From Ignavibacteriota bacterium (GTDB lineage Bacteria; Bacteroidota; Ignavibacteria; UBA10030; CAVZMI01), in assembly GCA_963776275.1 (NCBI GenBank), contig CAVZMI010000020.1:32001-96000 (forward strand): a stretch of DNA of 64,000 bases, read 5' to 3'. The notes under the pieces are model-generated. The model was not told the DNA's origin, did not search any database, and saw only the letters and a program-made list of their open reading frames with translations. Positions 3,917 to 12,198 of this stretch are shown here, piece after piece. The number at the start of each line of letters is the position of its first letter. Position 1 is the first letter of the stretch. The position numbers were made by a program, and so were the translations under genes.

Positions 3917-4195
3917 ATGCGATCAAATCGAAAAGAGATACTCAAAATACTTCAGACAATACCCGGTGTCGGCAAATCAATTTCCGTCGATCTTTATAAC
4001 CTCGGCATCCGCTCTGTGCACGATCTGCAAAAGAAAAAACCCGAGAGGCTCTTTGAAAAACACTGTACACAAAAGGGAGTGCTTGTTGACCGGTGCATGT
4101 TATACGTTCTGCGCTGTGCCGTCTACTATGCATCGACAAAAAATCCAAAACCTGAGTTGTTACGATGGTGGAACTGGAAGGATACCCTTAGATGA
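3917..4195 (+). CDS. Helix-hairpin-helix protein, Cdd1/mitomycin-resistance McrB-like
   Basis: LQTIPGVGKSI HhH motif, DRCMLYVLRCAVYYA, C-terminal WWNWKD. Confidence 0.75.
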   Translation: MRSNRKEILKILQTIPGVGKSISVDLYNLGIRSVHDLQKKKPERLFEKHCTQKGVLVDRCMLYVLRCAVYYASTKNPKPELLRWWNWKDTLR

Positions 4196-5397
4196 AAAAA
4201 ATTCAGAAAAAATCGCTCTCTCTCGCAACTCGGGCGATTCATGGAAAAGAGTGCTACCCTTATACAGGACCGGTGTCTCAACCGATATATCAAACCTCCA
4301 CATACCGCTTTGAAAATTCTCGGTATCCAATCCGGTACGCAAGAGGAGACCGTGATGTCTATGTGTACACGCGGTACCATAATCCTACAGTAAAGAATGT
4401 TGAAGAAAAAATTGCTTTAATGGAAGGGGGCGAAGAGGCGGCCCTGTTCACTTCCGGCATGGCGGCAATCTCTACTGCAATCCTCTCCGTCGTACATGCC
4501 GGCGACGAGATCGTTAGTACTCAAGCGTTGTACGGCGGAACATACCGTTTTTTTCGTGATATTCTTCCTCACCACGATATCTCGGTAAAATACGTACCGC
4601 ATGATCAGCTGGAATCTCTCGGATCACTGATTACATCAAAGACGAAGCTTGTCTATCTCGAAACACCGACAAATCCGACCCTCAATATAGTCGATGTGAA
4701 ACGAGCCGTTGCTCTGGTCAAAAAAATCGAGAGGAGATTGCACATTCATATCGTGACGATGATCGACAACACGTTCGCTTCAATATATAATCAGGATCCT
4801 TTTACACTGGGTGTCGATGTCATCGTTGAAAGCGCAACAAAATATCTAGGAGGACATTCCGATCTTCTTGCGGGAGTTGTTATCGGATCGAAGAAATTTC
4901 TTCGTATCGTACGTCACAATGCAAAGTACTACGGTGGCTGTGCCGATCCGTTCATGGCGTATCTTTTATTCAGAAGTTTAAAGACGTACGCACTCCGCTT
5001 GCAGCGTCAGAATGAAAACGCATATACGCTTGCGCGGGCTCTCGAAAAGCATTCAAAGGTGAAGCGTATATTTTACCCGGGAATTCCTTCGCACCCGCAA
5101 CATGCAATTGCAAAGAAACAGATGTTGGGTTTCGGTGGTATGGTTACGATTGAAGTAATAAAGGGGATCAGGGGTGCCGTCAAACTTTGTAACAATTTGC
5201 ATATAGCCGTAAATGCGATGAGTCTCGGCAGCGTAGAAACGCTCGTCAGCATCCCGGTGTATTCATCGCACGTCAATATGTCCGGTGAAGAACTTAAGCA
5301 ACAAGGGGTATCACCGGGTATGGTACGGATATCCGTCGGGGTTGAAGGAATTAACGATATAATAGCAGATTTTCGCCAGGCCTTGAAAAAGGTTTAA
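4192..5397 (+). CDS. PLP-dependent Cys/Met metabolism enzyme (methionine gamma-lyase / cystathionine gamma-synthase family)
   Basis: PIYQTSTY, YTRYHNPT, FTSGMAAI, ETPTNP, DNTF, SATKYLGGHSD (PLP lysine), SLGSVETL. Confidence 0.92.
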   Translation: MKKIQKKSLSLATRAIHGKECYPYTGPVSQPIYQTSTYRFENSRYPIRYARGDRDVYVYTRYHNPTVKNVEEKIALMEGGEEAALFTSGMAAISTAILSVVHAGDEIVSTQALYGGTYRFFRDILPHHDISVKYVPHDQLESLGSLITSKTKLVYLETPTNPTLNIVDVKRAVALVKKIERRLHIHIVTMIDNTFASIYNQDPFTLGVDVIVESATKYLGGHSDLLAGVVIGSKKFLRIVRHNAKYYGGCADPFMAYLLFRSLKTYALRLQRQNENAYTLARALEKHSKVKRIFYPGIPSHPQHAIAKKQMLGFGGMVTIEVIKGIRGAVKLCNNLHIAVNAMSLGSVETLVSIPVYSSHVNMSGEELKQQGVSPGMVRISVGVEGINDIIADFRQALKKV

Positions 5398-5647
5398 AAC
5401 CTGATTGGAAAAGAAAGGGTTTATTGAAAAAGGCAGTTATTAGGCATAATCAAACGCTGTTTTTGTGTTAGATGTGCCAGATACGCCCTGCCGCTATATA
5501 TAAATGTACCATGCTGATATGGGGCACAGCCAGGCCAATGTAACCCGGCTGTTCAAATAAATGGAGGCGGAGATTGATTTTCTGCACGAACTTCTGTACA
5601 ATCGTGTGGATATAATATTCTGTCTCACGATCATGTGAGGAGGATTT

Positions 5648-6247
5648 ATGGGTTCACCTCTTCAAGCTGAGGGAAATCCATCAGTAAAAAAAGTAAAAAC
5701 GTACGAGATGTATGTCGTACCGATAAAACAATCACTCTATCGGCGCTTTTTCTCTCAAAAATTTCTGATCACTTCTGAGACAAATCCATTCGGCACAATG
5801 GTGCTCAATTTCCGTAGCATTGATTTTCACGCTACTAACGGAGAATCTTTTTCTCTCATTGTCCGATGGGAAAAACTGAGACCTCATTTCAAGTTGATGC
5901 AACACGGAAAAGAAAATCCTGCTGCTCATACTGATCCTACGGTCAAATCAAGCCGGCAATTCATTCTGATCGACGATTCAACGGGTTCGAAGTGTGTTCT
6001 TCGCGCCGCTGGTCCGCTGGCAAGCTTATGGGGGTTGGAAGGAGAAAATGAATCGATTATAGCACAATTCAGCCGCCATCATCGTCTTTTTCCGAAGAGT
6101 GTTTCTGAAAAAAGACTCTCTTCAATCACTTCATTTGAAAAAGTCGCCGCACGACAAATCGATTCTGCCGAAGATCCGGCACAGCTGCCAATTCTGCCGA
6201 TTTTCGCGCAGATGATACTCTTCTCGCTTGAATCACACGGTGCATGA
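5648..6247 (+). CDS. Hypothetical protein
   Basis: 199-aa ORF with strong RBS (GAGGAGG) 4 nt before the ATG, followed by a terminator; no family recognised. Confidence 0.6.
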   Translation: MGSPLQAEGNPSVKKVKTYEMYVVPIKQSLYRRFFSQKFLITSETNPFGTMVLNFRSIDFHATNGESFSLIVRWEKLRPHFKLMQHGKENPAAHTDPTVKSSRQFILIDDSTGSKCVLRAAGPLASLWGLEGENESIIAQFSRHHRLFPKSVSEKRLSSITSFEKVAARQIDSAEDPAQLPILPIFAQMILFSLESHGA

Positions 6248-6294
6248 GGCGGTAGCCCGGCAGTTATATAAATATTTCATTCAATCAAAAAACG

Positions 6295-6330
6295 AAAACG
6301 CCCGTTCACCCATTGTGAGACGGGCGTTTT
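6295..6330. terminator. Bidirectional intrinsic terminator
   Basis: AAAACGCCCGT-TCAC...GTGA-G-ACGGGCGTTTT hairpin between convergent genes. Confidence 0.8.
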
Positions 6331-6348
6331 GTATGGATCTCATCACGT

Positions 6349-6579
6349 TTATTCGACAACGTGTTCAACGGCCTCTGCAAGCGCATGTTGGAAGTTGACG
6401 ATATCGTTGTTGAAGACGGTCATGAAAGCTCGCTCACGTTCCCGGTCTTTGTTGAAGCGGGATTGAGAAATCACGAGATACTTCTTCCCGTTTTTTGCTT
6501 CCTTCACATCGAAGAAAAATGTGCTGGTGTTTGCTTTCACCATAGTGGTGAATACCTGCTGTTTCGTTTCCTGTTCCAT
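6349..6579 (-). CDS. PUR-alpha-like ssDNA/RNA-binding protein (DUF3276 family)
   Basis: VFTTMVKA...TFFFDVKE...KYLVISQSR...F...L pattern of a single PUR repeat; RBS AAAGGA. Confidence 0.82.
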   Translation of the reverse strand: MEQETKQQVFTTMVKANTSTFFFDVKEAKNGKKYLVISQSRFNKDRERERAFMTVFNNDIVNFQHALAEAVEHVVE

Positions 6580-6741
6580 CGTTTGATCCTTTCGTTTTAC
6601 AGTTGCGTAATTGACTTAGTACCGCTCCAACGAGCATTCTAAATTGATTCTATGTTATTATGTATGTTGGATCGTGTACCTTGCCCTTTTAATAGTTAGA
6701 AATGGTTAAGGGGCACTTTAAAATATCCATCTCTAATATAG

Positions 6742-6760
6742 AGAACGAATTCAGGTTACA
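6742..6760 (-). promoter_or_regulatory. Putative operator/promoter element TGTAACCT-N3-TTCGTTCT, copy 1
   Basis: 16/19 identical to 8578-8596; same orientation; upstream of the PUR gene. Confidence 0.55.
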
Positions 6761-6819
6761 CTATTTCCGGAATAAAATATGATCACTGCGATCGCAGAAT
6801 AGATCCGAAGAATGGAGAG

Positions 6820-7329
6820 TTAAAAGTACCTGGACGGGTATTCGAGGGAAGAAAGCTTCAGGCGGAGAGCTTCGTTACTAACATCATATCTCATACGGAG
6901 AATTGAGAGATCGCTTTCTTTTACCGCCATGGTACGGAGATCATTGCTCGGCATGAGAAGTTCGGCAGCAAATAGATCCGCTTCGCGGTTGAAGCGCCTG
7001 ATTTCATCTTGAGTGGAACGTGCTTCCGGTGGATGTTTTAAAAGAATATGACCGAGCTCATGTGCAAGCGAAAAACGCTGTCGGCGGGGATGGTGTTTGC
7101 CGTTGATACCGATAAGCTTTTTATCAAGGCTGACAATGCCCGAGAGCTCCGGGGGAAGTGTCGTTAACAATATCACCTGGTAGCCGCAAAGTGAGGCGAT
7201 GGTTTCAATTGGAACAGGAAGCTGTTTATGTCCTGTAACCTGCTCAAGACGCCCGAGTACGCTCCGAGCCAGGGTAATACAGTGACTCTCACGGTTCAAG
7301 ACCGTCGGTCGCACGTTTGATATATTCAT
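6820..7329 (-). CDS. ImmA/IrrE-family Zn metallo-endopeptidase (alternative start TTG at 7299)
   Basis: PVPIETIA, RQRFSLAHELGHILL (HExxH), EADLFAAELLMP, C-terminal YDVSNEALRLKL; no GAF domain. Confidence 0.9.
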   Translation of the reverse strand: MNISNVRPTVLNRESHCITLARSVLGRLEQVTGHKQLPVPIETIASLCGYQVILLTTLPPELSGIVSLDKKLIGINGKHHPRRQRFSLAHELGHILLKHPPEARSTQDEIRRFNREADLFAAELLMPSNDLRTMAVKESDLSILRMRYDVSNEALRLKLSSLEYPSRYF

Positions 7330-7912
7330 TTATCTGCTCTTGCCGGTCCGGTGAAATGTGAATATCAGCCTTCACAAAAAGTTCGCGAACTGCTTTTTGC
7401 ATTTCTTTCGATTTATGCCGGTTTTGCTTCGCATCATACCGGGCAAGCGTCGAAGCCAGCGAAGGATTCAGGTTTGCACATCGAATGGAATTTTTTATCA
7501 GCACGACCGCTGCCTGCGACGGAAGCGAAAGATAATGCAACAATAAATTCATGGCATTTGCGGGGATCTCCAGGGGCGAGAGCGTATCGCGGCAGAGACG
7601 GGTCAATTGCGATACCGCAATACCAGCCTTTTTTGCCATCGACGCGAGCACAACCGATTCCTTTTTCCGCGCATGAGTAATAACCTCGCGTGTAATATAC
7701 TCTCCAAGCGTGAGTGCTCCTTTTGTCGCCTGCGCGGCTTTCCGTTCATCAAGGATAGCAACAAGCCGATTATGCAGCTGCTCCAATTTCTGTGCGGAAA
7801 TTCTCTCTACAGGAGCCCGTTTCATCACAACCTTTTCAATCAAGCCCCTTGTCGTGATTCTCCCATCAAGGTATGCAAGCTGCAAAATGAGATCTATTGA
7901 GTCTCGTTTCAT
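7289..7912 (-). CDS. Putative XRE/Cro-C1 HTH regulator, possibly an anti-sigma factor
   Basis: TLGEYI...SMAKKAGIAVSQLTRLCRD resembles an XRE HTH; ATGA overlap with the sigma gene. Confidence 0.6.
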   Translation of the reverse strand: MKRDSIDLILQLAYLDGRITTRGLIEKVVMKRAPVERISAQKLEQLHNRLVAILDERKAAQATKGALTLGEYITREVITHARKKESVVLASMAKKAGIAVSQLTRLCRDTLSPLEIPANAMNLLLHYLSLPSQAAVVLIKNSIRCANLNPSLASTLARYDAKQNRHKSKEMQKAVRELFVKADIHISPDRQEQINEYIKRATDGLEP

Positions 7913-8559
7913 ACGTTCTCTGTTATAAATGGAATATGATGCTTTTCAAATTCTTCCCTGAGTTTTTGAATAAATTTACTTTTCACTCTCAGATGGTATA
8001 TTTTCAACTGTTTTGCCGGTCTATCGACATAAGGGGCAATCTCTTCGTACGGAATATCGAGTGCCCGGCATCGAAGCAGCACCCGCTCCCAGGTTTCCAT
8101 CGATTGTAGCGTTTCGACAACCAATTGCAGCGGCCGGCTCCCTAATTCACTTGTATCCCCTTCCCCATCTATGAAATCTTGAATTACAATATCTGCAATC
8201 TCCCGTGCTGCCGTGAAGGCCTCATCATCCCCCCTCGCTCCTTCCGAAAACACCTCCATTTTCATCCCATGCAAATCCTGCTGCCTCAGAAAATCCCTCG
8301 CACGATTCCGCAGAATTGTAAAAACCCACCGCGCAAAATCTTCATCAGAGTTCCTGAATGAAAAGAGCGAAATACGCTGGACTACAGCCAGCAGGACATC
8401 GCTAACAATTTCCTCAGCATCTTCACGGAGAATGTGAAATGTCCCTACCAGATGCTCAAAAAGCCTGTGCTGATACACCTGCATCAGATGAGTGCATCCG
8501 GAACGATCCCCCGCTTTCAGTTCTTCGACAATTTGCCGGTTTGATATCTGTTGACCCAA
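7909..8559 (-). CDS. ECF-type sigma-70 factor
   Basis: Region 2: DAEEIVSDV...FARWVFTILRNRARDFLR; region 4: LQSMETWERVLL...IPYEEIA. Confidence 0.82.
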   Translation of the reverse strand: MGQQISNRQIVEELKAGDRSGCTHLMQVYQHRLFEHLVGTFHILREDAEEIVSDVLLAVVQRISLFSFRNSDEDFARWVFTILRNRARDFLRQQDLHGMKMEVFSEGARGDDEAFTAAREIADIVIQDFIDGEGDTSELGSRPLQLVVETLQSMETWERVLLRCRALDIPYEEIAPYVDRPAKQLKIYHLRVKSKFIQKLREEFEKHHIPFITENV

Positions 8560-8577
8560 ATCTGCCCTATAGAAGAT

Positions 8578-8596
8578 AGAACGAAAAGAGGTTACA
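8578..8596 (-). promoter_or_regulatory. Putative operator/promoter element TGTAACCT-N3-TTCGTTCT, copy 2
   Basis: Ends 18 nt upstream of the ECF sigma TTG start; 16/19 identical to 6742-6760. Confidence 0.55.
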
Positions 8597-8818
8597 ATTA
8601 TCTTGTCATGGGGAAAAATGCGGGGGTTACAGGAAATGTTAATAATTTTAGTATAAGACGGGGCAATTCTACAAAGTACTTTTTACTCCTATTTTCTACT
8701 CTACATCTTCTCCGGCGCCGTAAATATGAATCGCACTTCTAAAATCGGAAATCCCGAAGGGTCGTAGACATCAATCAAAAATCAGAAATTCTATAGCCCT
8801 GAAGACTTTATCTTCTCG

Positions 8819-10451
8819 TTACATCTTTTCTGGGGCTGTTATTCCCAGAATCCCCAGCCCGTTCGCCAGCACCGTCTTTGTTGCCAGAGACAATGCCAAT
8901 CTTGCCTTCGATACCTCTTTATTCTCGGTCACCACCCGGCAATGATGATAAAATTGGTGAAACTCAGTCGCTACATCATGTAAATAATCGCATAAATGGT
9001 GAGGCTCGAGCATAACGGTACAGAGCAATATAATATTCGGGAAATCGATTAGCATTTTCATCAGTGATACCTCGGACTCGTGCTGCAGAAGCGATAAATC
9101 AGGCGAACCAGTAATATCCGCACCTTCAGATTCGGCAAACCGGAGGATACTGGCAATACGGGCGTGCGCGTACTGCAGATAATAGACGGGATTTTTATCG
9201 GATTGTTCTTTAGCAAGCTCTAAATCGAACTCCAAATGACTCGAAACGCTTCGCATAACGAGGAAATACCTTACGACATCTTTCCCAACTTCCTCTATCA
9301 AATCATCGAGCGTTACAACGTCGGCTGTCCGTTTCGACATCTTCACCTGCTCGCCGCCGCGTGTAAGCGTGACGAACTGATGAATCAGCACCCGCACTTT
9401 CGACTGATCGTATCCGAGTGCTTTAATCCCCGCCAGAACATCCGGCACTGTCGCAACGTGGTCCGATCCGAAAATATCAACGATCAGCTCGAAACCGCGC
9501 ATAAACTTATTGCGGTGGTATGCAATATCGGGCAGACGGTATGTCGGTTCGCCTGTGCTTTTTACGATCACACGGTCTTGATCGAGGCCGAGTGCCGTTG
9601 TCTTAAACCACACAGCGCCGTCGAGATCATATGCGAGCCCTCTTTTGCGGAATTCTTCAATGACTTCATTAATGGCGCCAGAAGAGTAAAGTGAATCTTC
9701 ATTGAAGAAGACATCAAACTTCACGCCGATTTTATTTAATGTCTCTTTGATTTTTTTAAAAAGAAATGTTTCGGCATATTCCTTGAAATACGTTCTATCC
9801 TCGACTCCCTTCAGGCTGTCCTTCTTCTCATTAAAAATCTTCTGTGCGATCTCTTTGATATACCCTCCCATATATCCATCTTCTGGCATGGGGAATGATT
9901 CATCAAATATCTGCATATAGCGTGCATAGACCGAATCGGCCAGCATACGCATCTGACGGCCTGCGTTATTAAAATAGTATTCACGGGTGACTCGGTACCC
10001 TGCCCATGTAAGAATGTTCGAGATCGTGTCGCCGATGGCAGCCTGCCGGCCGTGCCCGAGATGAAGCAGTCCTGTTGGATTTGCACTGACAAATTCCACC
10101 TGTGTTTTCTTGTCTTCTCCGATCCGGACATGACCATACTCCCCGCCTGCCTTAAGAATTTCATGCAGCCGGTATGAAAAAAATTTAGGTGTGAAATGAA
10201 AATTGAGAAAGCCCCGGACCGGCAATATCGATTTTATCAACGAATGAACGATCGACATCGAGTGCATTAACAATTTCCGATGCGACCTGACGTGGATTTC
10301 TCTTCAGCTGTTTGGAGAGCATCATAGCGATATTAGTCGTGAAGTCGCCGTGCTCGGGATTCTTTGGATGTTCGAAGGTAAGTGCTGCGGAGCCGAAATA
10401 CCCCAGCAACTTGAGTGCGGCCTCAAGCTTTTCGTTCAAATACTTCTTCAT
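8819..10451 (-). CDS. argS: Arginine--tRNA ligase, 1-nt frameshift near 10213 (probable sequencing error)
   Basis: HGDFTTNIAM and IAGPG in the first ORF; GFLNF, VEFVSANPTGLLHLGHGR, KMSKR and YYLQYAHARI in the second; normally an essential gene. Confidence 0.95.
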
Positions 10452-10457
10452 GAAAAC

Positions 10458-10877
10458 CTATGCTACCGCTTTTTTCCGAGGAGTTAATTTTTTCGAGCGC
10501 TGCTTTGACGCTTGTTTAGCGCCGTCATCATCGCCGACATGCTCGATGGGTGCATCGCCCCATAGACGCTCGAGGTTATAAAATCTTCTGACATCTTTAT
10601 GGAACACGTGGACGACAACATCGACAAAATCGAGCAGAATCCAGCTCCGGTTTGTGTAGCCCTCTTCGTGCCATGGACGATCACCCAGTTTTGCCATCCC
10701 TTCACTAATTGCATCGGCAACCGCCTTCACTTGAGTGTCGGAGTCGGCAGTACACACAACGAAATAATCTGTTATCGTGGTGAGCTTGCGCAGATCCATG
10801 ATAAGGACATCATACGCCTTTTTTGTCAAGGCAAGCTGAGCGACTTTCTTTGCTTCTGTTTTGGGTATCAATTGCAC
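10458..10877 (-). CDS. rsfS: Ribosome silencing factor
   Basis: KKAYDV, DYFVVCT, WILLDFVDVVVHVF, RRFYNLERLWGDA. Confidence 0.95.
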   Translation of the reverse strand: MQLIPKTEAKKVAQLALTKKAYDVLIMDLRKLTTITDYFVVCTADSDTQVKAVADAISEGMAKLGDRPWHEEGYTNRSWILLDFVDVVVHVFHKDVRRFYNLERLWGDAPIEHVGDDDGAKQASKQRSKKLTPRKKAVA

Positions 10878-10889
10878 CTCTTGAATTAG

Positions 10890-11483
10890 TTATTGAGAAA
10901 GATCCCCGCTCCGTCCAGGCGAGTCTGACTTTAGTCGGACGAGACGGGGGGCGAGCCCGCGCTGACGAAGGGGATTGAGTTGGCGATAATCTTTTCCTAC
11001 TACAACCGAAAAATCAACGAGTTCGCGATTGTTCTTCTTACGGATAATTCGTGTCGGGGAAATATTGATAGCATCGGCGATTTTCTTCGCAGCCGTCATA
11101 TCGTCGATCCAATCGATCACCATCGATCGGGTAAGTGTGGATGTTTCATAGTTACCGATCTCCACGACATCATATCCCAGTGAACGCAAATGATCAGTTA
11201 CTTTCATGGCGATACCCGGTGCACTGCATCCATTCAATACACTTATCTGAATTCGGCGTCCGGTATCATTGACGCCGAGACGGTCCGGTGCAGACCCGTT
11301 GGAAAACCACGAGAGAATACGTCCGTTAAAAATATAGAAAAGGAGAGCGCTCGCCGCGAGAATCACTCCGAGGATTCGTAAAGTCCGCTTCGCTGGAATA
11401 AGTAGCGTCCATTGTCCGCGCCGGTGGTGCGAGCTTTCTCTTGCAGAGGCTGATGATGCTGTTGTTCGTTCGTTCGAGGCCAA
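10890..11483 (-). CDS. LytR C-terminal domain membrane protein
   Basis: One TM helix, then IQISVLNGCSAPGIA...GYDVVEIGNY...FSVVVGKDY; TTG start at 11483 with AAGGGG upstream. Confidence 0.78.
   Translation of the reverse strand: MASNERTTASSASARESSHHRRGQWTLLIPAKRTLRILGVILAASALLFYIFNGRILSWFSNGSAPDRLGVNDTGRRIQISVLNGCSAPGIAMKVTDHLRSLGYDVVEIGNYETSTLTRSMVIDWIDDMTAAKKIADAINISPTRIIRKKNNRELVDFSVVVGKDYRQLNPLRQRGLAPRLVRLKSDSPGRSGDLSQ
10911..10947. repeat. REP-like palindrome inside the 3' end of the LytR_C gene
   Basis: CCGTC...GTCTGACT-TT-AGTCGGAC...GACGG. Confidence 0.5.
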
Positions 11484-11562
11484 ATTTTCCCGGGTGATCC
11501 CCCTTATAAAAAAATTAACCGAGCACGTCCCCCAGCAATCTGTCCACCGTCCTCCCCTCCGG

Positions 11563-11610
11563 CTTGTCCGCCGAATCCCCACCCCGACAAAGTCGGGGGA
11601 AGTAGGCGGA
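11563..11610. repeat. REP-like nested palindrome
   Basis: TCCGCC...GGCGGA arms enclosing CCCCGAC-AAA-GTCGGGG. Confidence 0.6.
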
Positions 11611-11694
11611 AACAAAACGAAGGCGGAAACGTTGATGAAGACAGAAACTGGGACTGTAACCCGGTTTAGACATCAACAGGAATTTTGTTTAAAA

Positions 11695-12198
11695 TTAATA
11701 TTCGTCTCCAAAAAGCGGATTGTAAAAACGAGATCGATATCCTCCATAAAAACCGCTATGATACCCATAGGGATTTTGATTGAACTGAACCTGAATGTGG
11801 AAGTCGTCCCACGGTGTATAGTTAATCTGGGCCCGATTCAGAATGAGTCCGCTGAATTGATTTTTTAATCCCTGGGGCATCGAGCCGTAGGGTGACATCA
11901 TCAAACTGATATCTGCCTGCACATTCAGTCTGTCCGAAAATTTATAACTCATGCTGTTGGTGTACATATTGACACCCAGCGTCTGATTCCCCATACTCAT
12001 GTACGACATCGTGATGCTGTGTTGCATCTGAAAATTTTCCGGATTGAACCAACCGAAGAGATCGAACGAGCTGTAATCATTCCGGAGTATCGATCCGGAC
12101 ACGCTCGGATGTTCCTGGTTGACCTGGGATTTAAATTGCGCATGCGCAACACCACAAAACAGCCCTGCTAACGCTACAAGCATCGCATACCGTTTCAT
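11695..12198 (-). CDS. Hypothetical secreted protein
   Basis: Signal peptide MKRYAMLVALAGLFCGVAHA/Q; RBS GGAG. Confidence 0.75.
   Translation of the reverse strand: MKRYAMLVALAGLFCGVAHAQFKSQVNQEHPSVSGSILRNDYSSFDLFGWFNPENFQMQHSITMSYMSMGNQTLGVNMYTNSMSYKFSDRLNVQADISLMMSPYGSMPQGLKNQFSGLILNRAQINYTPWDDFHIQVQFNQNPYGYHSGFYGGYRSRFYNPLFGDEY

Follow-up and report, generated by a model that had tools for sequence, protein, structure and literature searches.

We describe a four-gene module in the genome of an Ignavibacteriota bacterium (assembly GCA_963776275.1; 3.70 Mb in 38 contigs, 96.4% complete, 5.3% contamination) that may couple a dedicated protease to a sigma factor. The module lies in the 64,000-nucleotide (nt) stretch analyzed here, hereafter the window (contig CAVZMI010000020.1, positions 32,001 to 96,000, or C20:32001-96000 in our numbering). 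Within 6349-8559 of the window, the list of open reading frames (ORFs) contains four minus-strand genes, all in one direction, for a sigma factor predicted to be of the extracytoplasmic function (ECF) type, a middle protein with an XRE-type helix-turn-helix (HTH) domain, an M78-family peptidase, and a small PUR-like protein (Table 1). We propose that the peptidase cuts the middle protein, a putative fusion of an anti-sigma segment to an XRE domain, and so frees a self-activating sigma factor whose regulon centers on single-stranded DNA (ssDNA); for this proposal as a whole, we judge the chances to be even. The module itself is real and conserved, and our confidence in its anatomy is high. The ORF list confirms the arrangement described in an earlier, sequence-only reading of this DNA, namely three overlapping genes followed by a co-oriented PUR gene. 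The sigma and middle-protein genes share 4 nt (7909-7912), and the middle-protein and peptidase genes share 41 nt (7289-7329), an overlap that suggests translational coupling of the latter two. A gap of 240 nt separates the peptidase gene from the PUR gene.

We collected 38 loci (L013 to L050) by alignment of the sigma factor at an identity of at least 39% and sought the partner genes by tblastn. The middle protein was found at 36 of these loci and the peptidase at 33, with the PUR gene directly downstream at 24, and gene order was constant. These counts bear out the conservation of the gene neighborhood that the sequence-only reading had put forward as a check, and the arrangement is far beyond chance. 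The middle protein was missed at L041 and L050; the peptidase was missed at L018, L022, and L029, where contigs end, and at L028 and L050. The order sigma-middle protein-peptidase also held at loci L001 to L009. Among 61 related genomes, the middle protein occurred in 12 (7 of 43 genera), and the sigma factor was present in single copy in 10 (E < 1e-60). Of 401 genomes drawn from across the phylum, 11 matched the middle-protein profile, and these belong to a single order of Ignavibacteria. Two loci hold a reduced module, in which the PUR gene comes straight after the sigma gene and no middle protein or peptidase was found: L050 and a locus in a genome rated 100% complete, G010 (L095, G010:C1:21000-23223). 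The flanks of the loci vary by family and look like ordinary chromosomal genes (DinB_2, response regulator, thioredoxin, Bax1-I, Ada, and RmuC).

An asymmetric motif, TGT(T/A)ACC-N6-CGTT-N8-TA, with no dyad symmetry, precedes both the sigma gene and the PUR gene of the module. We read both intergenic regions of the window and found an identical 18-mer before the sigma gene and before the PUR gene (copies P1 and P2 in Table 1; position weight matrix [PWM] scores of 28.6 at C20:40597(-) and 28.8 at C20:38761(-), respectively), P2 lying about 155 nt ahead of the PUR ATG. Across the 38 loci, the motif was upstream of the sigma gene in 37 and upstream of the PUR gene in 22 of 24 (not L037 or L046). 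The pattern TGT[TA]AC-N7/8-CGTT, searched on both strands of L013 to L050, gave 65 matches, every one on the operon strand. One match (L027:7786) was dropped as chance, and the 64 that were used (63 unique) yielded the consensus cTGT(T/A)ACCt..tTTCGTT(t/c)(c/a)T......TAG(g/a)G, in which the conserved positions not forced by the pattern include C7, T8, T11 to T13, T20, T26, A27, and G28. At the loci read by eye, the sigma start codon was 32 to 38 nt from motif position 1; the ORF calls at L022 and L026 placed the start about 100 and about 277 nt off, and L022 also has an ATG at +36. The reduced modules keep the motif, before the sigma gene in G010 and before the PUR gene in L050. The two-copy layout, before the sigma gene and after the peptidase gene, is also held by three distant triads (L010 to L012; sigma factors about 18 to 24% identical), in which the upstream block has changed (TGTCAC-N7-CGTT) and sigma region 4 differs as well. 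One of these triads (L010:2457-3357, genome G060) lies directly upstream of Multi_ubiq (PF14452) and DUF6791 genes, which we take as a ubiquitination-like, defense-type operon.

From the position and conservation of the motif, we interpret P1 with moderate confidence as a sigma-dependent, self-activating promoter. We prefer a promoter to an XRE operator because the motif tracks the sigma factor, stays in G010 where the middle protein is missing, and, in the distant triads, changes in its upstream block together with region 4. At L039, the sigma ATG occupies motif positions 32 to 34 and is preceded by an in-frame TAG at positions 26 to 28, and in most loci a purine-rich, Shine-Dalgarno-like stretch covers positions 28 to 33; because of these positions, transcription probably starts at about position 27 or earlier. 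Such a start would make CGTT(C)T at positions 14 to 19 the likely -10 element and T26-A27 a plausible -1/+1. CGT-type -10 elements are typical of ECF promoters. TGTWACC (W, T or A) would then sit at about -26 to -20, some 10 bp nearer than the ECF -35 element, and CGTT at about -13 to -10. That the sigma factor reads a promoter with its two blocks a helical turn nearer to each other than in the sigma70-family promoters described so far is a tentative idea, which we consider rather unlikely; if it is true, region 4 would touch DNA at about -24, maybe by way of the long acidic linker or the ssDNA-binding PUR protein. A sigma54 reading was rejected: the spacing is equal (TGGCAC-N5-TTGC versus TGTWAC-N5-TTCG), and the diagnostic GG and GC are missing. 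The genome has rpoN, with 5 canonical TGGCAC-N5-TTGC sites versus 18 TGTAAC-N5-TTCGTT sites. A scan of 6100-8900 for sigma70 promoter and terminator consensus sequences gave nothing above shuffles, and a repeat search found no operator-like palindrome near P1.

By its modeled fold, the sigma factor is a divergent ECF-type protein. It matches Sigma70_r2 (PF04542, 32.7 bits; cut-off, 24), and no Pfam region-4 model matched at E ≤ 0.1. An AlphaFold2 model built from 35 sequences (pLDDT, 85.4) has two helical domains and a low-confidence acidic linker with one helix; its 216 residues accommodate two helical domains and one linker, as in an ECF sigma factor with region 4 and without regions 1.1 and 3. 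Foldseek placed sigmaE first (6jbq_F, E = 5e-5 over 211 columns) and aligned the model over 197 to 211 columns with full-length sigmaE, AlgU, and SigW, with SigH and SigL also matched. At the sequence level, the profile matched region 2 of CnrH, SigE, and SigW at 1.7e-6 and weaker. The ECF label given by the sequence-only reading thus held for the fold, which aligns over about 200 columns with sigmaE, AlgU, SigW, and SigH, and did not hold for the family model TIGR02937 (39.1 bits, under its cut-off of 42.9); we retain it, qualified as divergent, because of the fold. Casas-Pastor 2021 (PMC7826278) describes ECF130 and ECF201 as near HTH proteins, and the main text of that classification contains 0 mentions of M78, IrrE, XRE, peptidase, or Ignavibacteria. 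Weak relatives of the sigma factor (23 to 28% identity) occur on two contigs of Acidobacteriota metagenome-assembled genomes (L051 and L052), where an M78 peptidase match lies on the opposite strand about 0.8 to 1.1 kb past the end of the sigma match. This arrangement hints at related modules beyond Bacteroidota.

The middle protein passed no Pfam or NCBIfam cut-off (HTH_26, 14.4 bits versus 22), and its residues 1 to 63 had no match in either collection. Few relatives of it are known (318 representatives at E ≤ 1e-3, 87 at 1e-10, and 25 at 1e-30, among 1.84 billion), and a protein atlas search gave only "hypothetical protein" clusters. The AlphaFold2 model is all helical (pLDDT, 77.8) and gave no Foldseek match in the PDB at E ≤ 0.001. 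When residues 67 to 141 were aligned structurally with VIA-align, the N-terminal domain of CapH (7t5u; Z = 6.6, root mean square deviation [rmsd] of 2.4 over 65 residues), P22 c2 (Z = 6.6), the N-terminal domain of DdrO (Z = 6.2), and ImmR (Z = 5.9) were recovered; the CapH, DdrO, and ImmR domains together span Z scores of 5.9 to 6.6 and rmsd values of 2.4 to 2.8 over 64 to 66 residues, where a Z score below 8 may reflect a common arrangement and nearly all top rows were XRE-type domains. These fold matches agree with the earlier assignment of the middle protein as an XRE-HTH protein. Positions 53 to 135 of its profile match tandem HTH_3 repeat proteins. Conservation in the family peaks at FRPSFRTTLARYD (residues 148 to 160), which lies at the end of a long helix where model confidence falls, and within this stretch L156, R158, and Y159 are invariant across 36 sequences.

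The sequence-only reading had suggested that the middle protein acts as a soluble anti-sigma factor and had called for prediction of its complex with the sigma factor. The prediction gave an ipSAE of 0.85 in all three runs and 0.00 for the best control; the calibration mark for this score is passed by 116 of 157 solved complexes and by 2 of 215 mismatched pairs. The runs share at least 95% of their contacts (partner pLDDT, 80), and the predicted contacts join residues 3 to 61 of the middle protein to sigma region 2 (residues 14 to 99), the linker helix (115 to 132), and region 4 (144 to 200). These models support, with moderate confidence, a clamp in which the N-terminal ~60 residues of the middle protein would hold the sigma factor between regions 2 and 4, as a soluble anti-sigma factor does. 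The XRE domain may be a handle by which the peptidase recognizes its substrate, or it may provide a second layer of repression through DNA binding.

The third gene encodes a clear M78 peptidase (Peptidase_M78, PF06114, 69 bits; cut-off, 22). Its HELGH sequence lies at residues 90 to 94 (nt 7048-7062), and H90, E91, H94, E116, and D118 do not vary across the 34 sequences compared. The best PADLOC match was capP (4.9e-21), over profile positions 14 to 153 of 242; that the match stops at position 153 agrees with the earlier description of the peptidase as lacking a GAF domain. In the PDB, it matched CapP (7t5t, 3.7e-6, residues 88 to 178 of the 291-residue protein) and IrrE (8slm and 3dte).

We assemble these elements into the following model. 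At rest, the first three helices of the middle protein would be wedged between regions 2 and 4 of the sigma factor and keep it inactive, as the complex prediction suggests. The signal would most likely be ssDNA or another consequence of DNA damage, upon which the GAF-less M78 peptidase would cut the middle protein, probably between A157 and R158 in the helix after the HTH domain, by analogy with CapP/CapH, IrrE/DdrO, and ImmA/ImmR. We favor this site because, in the account of Lau et al. 2022 (10.1101/2022.04.27.489752), CapP cuts CapH between F82 and R83 in the helix after the HTH domain and an R83A variant is not cut. We favor this trigger because T-rich ssDNA activates CapP in the same account and because the candidate regulon is centered on ssDNA. 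Cleavage and the damage signal are the parts of the model in which our confidence is lower, as both are drawn from analogy. Once the middle protein is cut, the sigma factor would be released and would transcribe its own operon and the PUR gene from the motif, as the position, orientation, and co-occurrence of the motif suggest. Depending on the lineage, it may also transcribe genes for integron integrases, IS200/RAYT transposases, GIY-YIG nucleases, dprA, rmuC, recA-recX, and ferritin.

The candidate regulon was examined with a stricter pattern, TGTWACC-N4-TTCGTT, which gave 18, 14, 9, 3, 4, 4, 2, and 5 matches in eight genomes with close relatives of the operon. In 49 genomes without the middle protein, the matches summed to 18, with a maximum of 4 per genome, and a reversed-pattern control gave 0 to 2 per strand. 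The motif is enriched only in genomes with this sigma factor. A PWM scan of the present genome found 20 sites scoring at least 15, the next scoring 13.3, and at each inspected site a co-oriented ORF begins 23 to 404 nt downstream. By Pfam and NCBIfam annotation, the motif-marked genes of this genome comprise the operon and PUR gene; recA-VIT1-recX (score of 18, 374 nt upstream); ferritin; two 23S_rRNA_IVP four-helix-bundle proteins; GIY-YIG nucleases; DUF2851; two unassigned proteins; four IS200-type Y1 transposases; and two integron-integrase-like recombinases. At one locus (L059, G000:C23:248604-250300), a 156-nt repeat resembling repetitive extragenic palindromic (REP) elements, with two hairpins and an embedded TGTAACC-N6-CGTTCT, stands in three copies before and two copies after an IS200/RAYT-type Y1 transposase gene. 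This transposase gene, one of the four, is seemingly split over two frames (504-737 and 691-1041).

In other genomes, the motif lies 77 to 80 nt ahead of integron integrase genes in G031 (L081:1023-1976, minus strand) and G046 (L085:1019-1984, minus strand), whose products score 433 and 450 bits against the TIGR02249 cut-off of 265. Related recombinases are marked in G031, G046, and G051, and rmuC is marked at L016 and L031. In G002, the motif marks the PUR gene, IS200-like genes, a GIY-YIG gene, and DUF2851, and a variant motif marks a ComM/YifB-type gene. The common thread of the motif-marked genes is proteins acting on ssDNA, and the core regulon is the operon and the PUR gene only. The marking of recA-recX, dprA, rmuC, integron integrases, and GIY-YIG nucleases lends indirect support to the damage-response role that the sequence-only reading had proposed.

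The PUR protein passes the cut-off of DUF3276 (PF11680, 34.6 bits versus 23.1) and falls under that of PurA (18.3 bits). Its profile matched 3nm7 (3e-13), 3n8b (2e-12), and fly and human Pur-alpha (8e-5 to 3e-3) in the PDB. It is one of three DUF3276 proteins encoded in the genome and represents a distinct, well-conserved, sigma-linked subfamily with a single repeat. The sequence-only reading had offered two roles for it, effector of the response or ssDNA sensor of the peptidase. The effector role is favored by the PUR gene having its own copy of the motif found before the sigma gene, a copy kept in G002, where the PUR gene lies about 70 kb from the operon. The sensor role is weakened by G010 and L050, which keep sigma factor and PUR protein without the middle protein or the peptidase. 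Because the PUR gene accompanies the sigma gene even where no peptidase is present, an output role for its product is more likely than a sensor role. A limited search of the literature naming DUF3276 found no function for bacterial PUR proteins.

Several observations weigh against the proposed model. TGTWACC and CGTT are 6 nt apart in 64 of 64 matches, not the 16 to 17 nt of a normal ECF -35/-10 pair, a count that is partly set by the search pattern (7 nt after TGTWAC), with the 7-8 version adding one match that was dropped as chance. The sigma:middle-protein prediction was made from unpaired alignments that we built ourselves, and, as solved sigma/anti-sigma complexes exist, its score may partly mirror that likeness. 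A cut after the HTH domain does not by itself account for release of the sigma factor from an N-terminal clamp. The peptidase, at 169 residues, is a catalytic domain only and has no counterpart of the GAF-like domain found at the C terminus of IrrE and CapP. L028 (3950-8338) contains the sigma and middle-protein genes and ample downstream sequence, in which tblastn found no match to the peptidase or PUR. As for the regulon, selfish elements lie downstream of many sites in this genome, and five sites fall in the REP-like repeat; the dprA sites (G002 and G032) lie 650 to 890 nt upstream with ORFs intervening; and the DNA-repair members are lineage specific. The motif precedes recA in three of three genomes of one family (f1) and, as a weak variant, in G026, and the 1.5 kb around recA showed no copy in G009, G031, G032, G041, G046, G240, or G318. 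Given this distribution, recA was rejected as a core target. Last, the only S24 gene of the genome (L071:1477-2148, minus strand, G000:C3) encodes a 223-residue XRE-HTH+S24 protein of the CI/non-canonical-LexA type (TIGR00498, 58.7 bits versus a cut-off of 111) and adjoins an rfaE-type heptose kinase gene; because this protein is encoded, we make no claim that the organism is without a LexA-type response.

The short spacing of the motif suits a protein-binding site better than a -35/-10 pair, and it could be explained if the module worked as DdrO and CapH do: the motif would be an XRE operator, the peptidase would de-repress, and another sigma factor would transcribe, with the ECF-type sigma factor as a member or amplifier of the regulon. 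In favor of such a model, the XRE fold of the middle protein is canonical, repressor cleavage is how the known M78/XRE pairs act as far as CapH/CapP is described, and motif enrichment follows the whole operon, not the sigma factor alone, in 9 of 10 genomes with a sigma orthologue. We nonetheless consider a repressor model distinctly unlikely. An asymmetric motif without a dyad, with 65 of 65 matches in gene direction and a near-fixed distance to the sigma start codon at the loci read by eye, is not what an operator would predict, nor is its retention before the sigma gene of G010, where the middle protein is missing, and before the PUR gene of L050. In the distant triads, the upstream block changes along with sigma region 4, and the strong predicted sigma-binding interface would have no role in a repressor model.

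The wiring that we favor, protease, anti-sigma fusion, and sigma factor, could also serve another signal, such as phage or mobile elements, stress from oxidants or metals, or DNA uptake in competence; we place this on the unlikely side. Together, dprA, a comM-like gene, and recA resemble competence regulons. Ferritin belongs to the candidate regulon here, and thioredoxin and Bax1-I genes follow the PUR gene at several loci. The peptidase lacks the GAF-like domain of CapP, the protein for which ssDNA activation is documented, and the triad at L010 directly precedes Multi_ubiq and DUF6791 genes, which in our judgment resemble Bub operons as far as these are described. Against a defense signal, no defense genes were found among 39 flanking ORFs scanned, of 94 listed in 12 loci, and ssDNA processing as the thread of the regulon fits damage too. 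A still weaker case can be made that the peptidase and middle protein are not enzyme and substrate (for example, a toxin-antitoxin-like or immunity pair in which cleavage has been lost) and that the sigma factor is held by stoichiometric binding or controlled by general proteases. Some XRE+M78 fusions are named antitoxin/repressor, and the model NF052239 (spr1629 family) matches the peptidase at 1.6e-11; L028 is apparently without the peptidase, and G010 and L050 are without both partners. This explanation is highly improbable in view of the catalytic HExxH, E116, and D118, which are invariant in all 34 peptidases, the overlap of the two genes with its implied translational coupling, and the presence of the peptidase at 33 of the 36 loci with the middle protein, three of the misses being at contig ends.

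Table 1. Features of the sigma-peptidase module, with coordinates in the window
Feature	Coordinates	Strand	Extent in product or motif blocks	Remarks
Sigma gene	7909-8559	-	216 aa	TTG start
Sigma region 2			residues ~7-96	
Sigma acidic linker with one helix			residues ~97-140	
Sigma region 4			residues ~141-206	invariant WERVLLRCR
Middle-protein gene	7289-7912	-	207 aa	
Predicted sigma-binding segment of middle protein	7730-7906	-	residues 3-61	complex prediction
XRE HTH domain of middle protein	7490-7714	-	residues 67-141	VIA-align
Candidate peptidase site in middle protein	7436-7447	-	invariant L156-A157-R158-Y159	alignment of 36 sequences
Peptidase gene	6820-7329	-	169 aa	
PUR-like gene	6349-6579	-	76 aa	
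Motif copy P1	8570-8596	-	TGTAACC 8596-8590, CGTTCT 8583-8578, TA 8571-8570	sigma TTG at 8559
Motif copy P2	6734-6760	-	TGTAACC 6760-6754, CGTTCT 6747-6742, TA 6735-6734	between peptidase and PUR genes

The module is flanked by argS, rsfS, and a LytR_C gene on one side and by a gene for a Cys/Met pyridoxal phosphate (PLP) enzyme and a 199-residue ORF on the other. No integrase or phage gene was found within 4000-12000 of the window, as the sequence-only reading had noted for the vicinity of the module. The 199-residue ORF (5648-6247, plus strand), between the PUR and Cys/Met PLP enzyme genes, has no Pfam or NCBIfam match, and a genome of the same genus (L002) has an ORF at the matching position. 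The argS gene (8819-10451, minus strand) appears to be split into two overlapping frames, an 88-residue N-terminal ORF (10185-10451) and a 484-residue ORF (8819-10273), which points to a frameshift or a misassembly around 10200-10270.

ECF sigma factors are freed by membrane protease cascades, and M78/XRE pairs are protease-repressor switches. The present module appears to join both, in that the XRE protein cut by a cytoplasmic M78 peptidase would carry a soluble anti-sigma segment as a fusion. It would be a compact system of three proteins and two promoters, with a promoter of odd geometry, and it offers an initial functional setting for bacterial PUR proteins as well as a candidate regulator for integron integrases and IS200/RAYT elements in Ignavibacteria. 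If the tentative idea of a closely spaced promoter is true, a protease-gated, self-amplifying, SOS-like circuit would govern ssDNA-processing genes and integrons in a phylum in which control of this kind is little known. In our literature search, no study dealt with a sigma + XRE + M78 mechanism and none with SOS or LexA in Ignavibacteria.

Among characterized systems, IrrE (PprI)/DdrO of Deinococcus and ImmA/ImmR of Bacillus ICEBs1 resemble the module in pairing an M78 peptidase with an XRE protein and in a damage-linked regulon that includes recA, and the module proteins matched structures of IrrE (8slm and 3dte), DdrO (6rnz), and ImmR (7t8i). Those pairs act by de-repression at a palindromic operator and are not known to involve a sigma factor, whereas the motif here is asymmetric and the presumed substrate is predicted to bind sigma. 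With sigmaE-RseA, SigW-RsiW, and AlgU-MucA, the module shares the two-domain sigma fold, an inhibitor predicted to sit between regions 2 and 4, and autoregulation, the last suggested here by the motif before the sigma gene. It differs from them in that the putative anti-sigma factor is soluble and fused to an XRE HTH domain, the presumed protease is an operon-encoded cytoplasmic M78 enzyme rather than a membrane protease of the site-1 or site-2 kind, the promoter blocks would be about 10 bp closer, and the sigma factor falls under the TIGR02937 cut-off. The PUR protein resembles the bacterial single-repeat form of the PUR-alpha family (3n8b and 3nm7) in having the same one repeat of about 70 residues and differs from it in belonging to a separate subfamily linked to the sigma factor and in being one of three paralogues in the genome. 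In the type III-E CRISPR system Craspase-Csx30-CASP-sigma, a dedicated protease cuts a soluble sigma-binding protein and frees an ECF-like sigma factor. The present sigma factor matches the model NF041236 at 1.3e-8 (35 bits, far under the cut-off of 100); protease family and trigger are unrelated (caspase-like and RNA guided in Craspase), and that system is not known to have an HTH domain or a PUR protein.

The closest likeness is to CapH/CapP, in which an XRE-HTH protein likewise stands beside an M78 peptidase; capP was the best PADLOC match and 7t5t the best solved relative. The sequence-only reading knew of no such system that includes a sigma factor, which is not quite so: one sentence of Lau et al. 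2022 (10.1101/2022.04.27.489752) reports capH and capP beside a sigma70-family sigma gene in 24 cyclic-oligonucleotide-based antiphage signaling systems (CBASS), cases not studied in that work. An adjacent sigma gene is thus common to both, as far as that sentence describes it. Both have a hydrophobic-Arg pair in the helix after the HTH domain (LARY here, and F82-R83 in the published description of CapH). A 2026 paper on CapK/CapS counts CapH and CapP among damage-responsive controllers of adjacent immune operons, Bub operons included, and one distant triad here precedes Multi_ubiq and DUF6791 genes. The differences lie in the peptidase, which has 169 residues versus 291 and is without the GAF-like C-terminal domain of CapP; in the extra N-terminal 60 residues of the middle protein, which are predicted to clamp sigma; in the setting, which is chromosomal and vertically inherited with no adjoining defense system in the loci examined; and in the output, a dispersed motif-marked regulon with the PUR gene and not a single adjacent operon. 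The module also supplies a hypothesis for the unexplained sigma genes mentioned beside capH-capP in defense islands. Overall, the description that fits it best is a version of the M78/XRE protease switch whose output runs through an ECF-type sigma factor.

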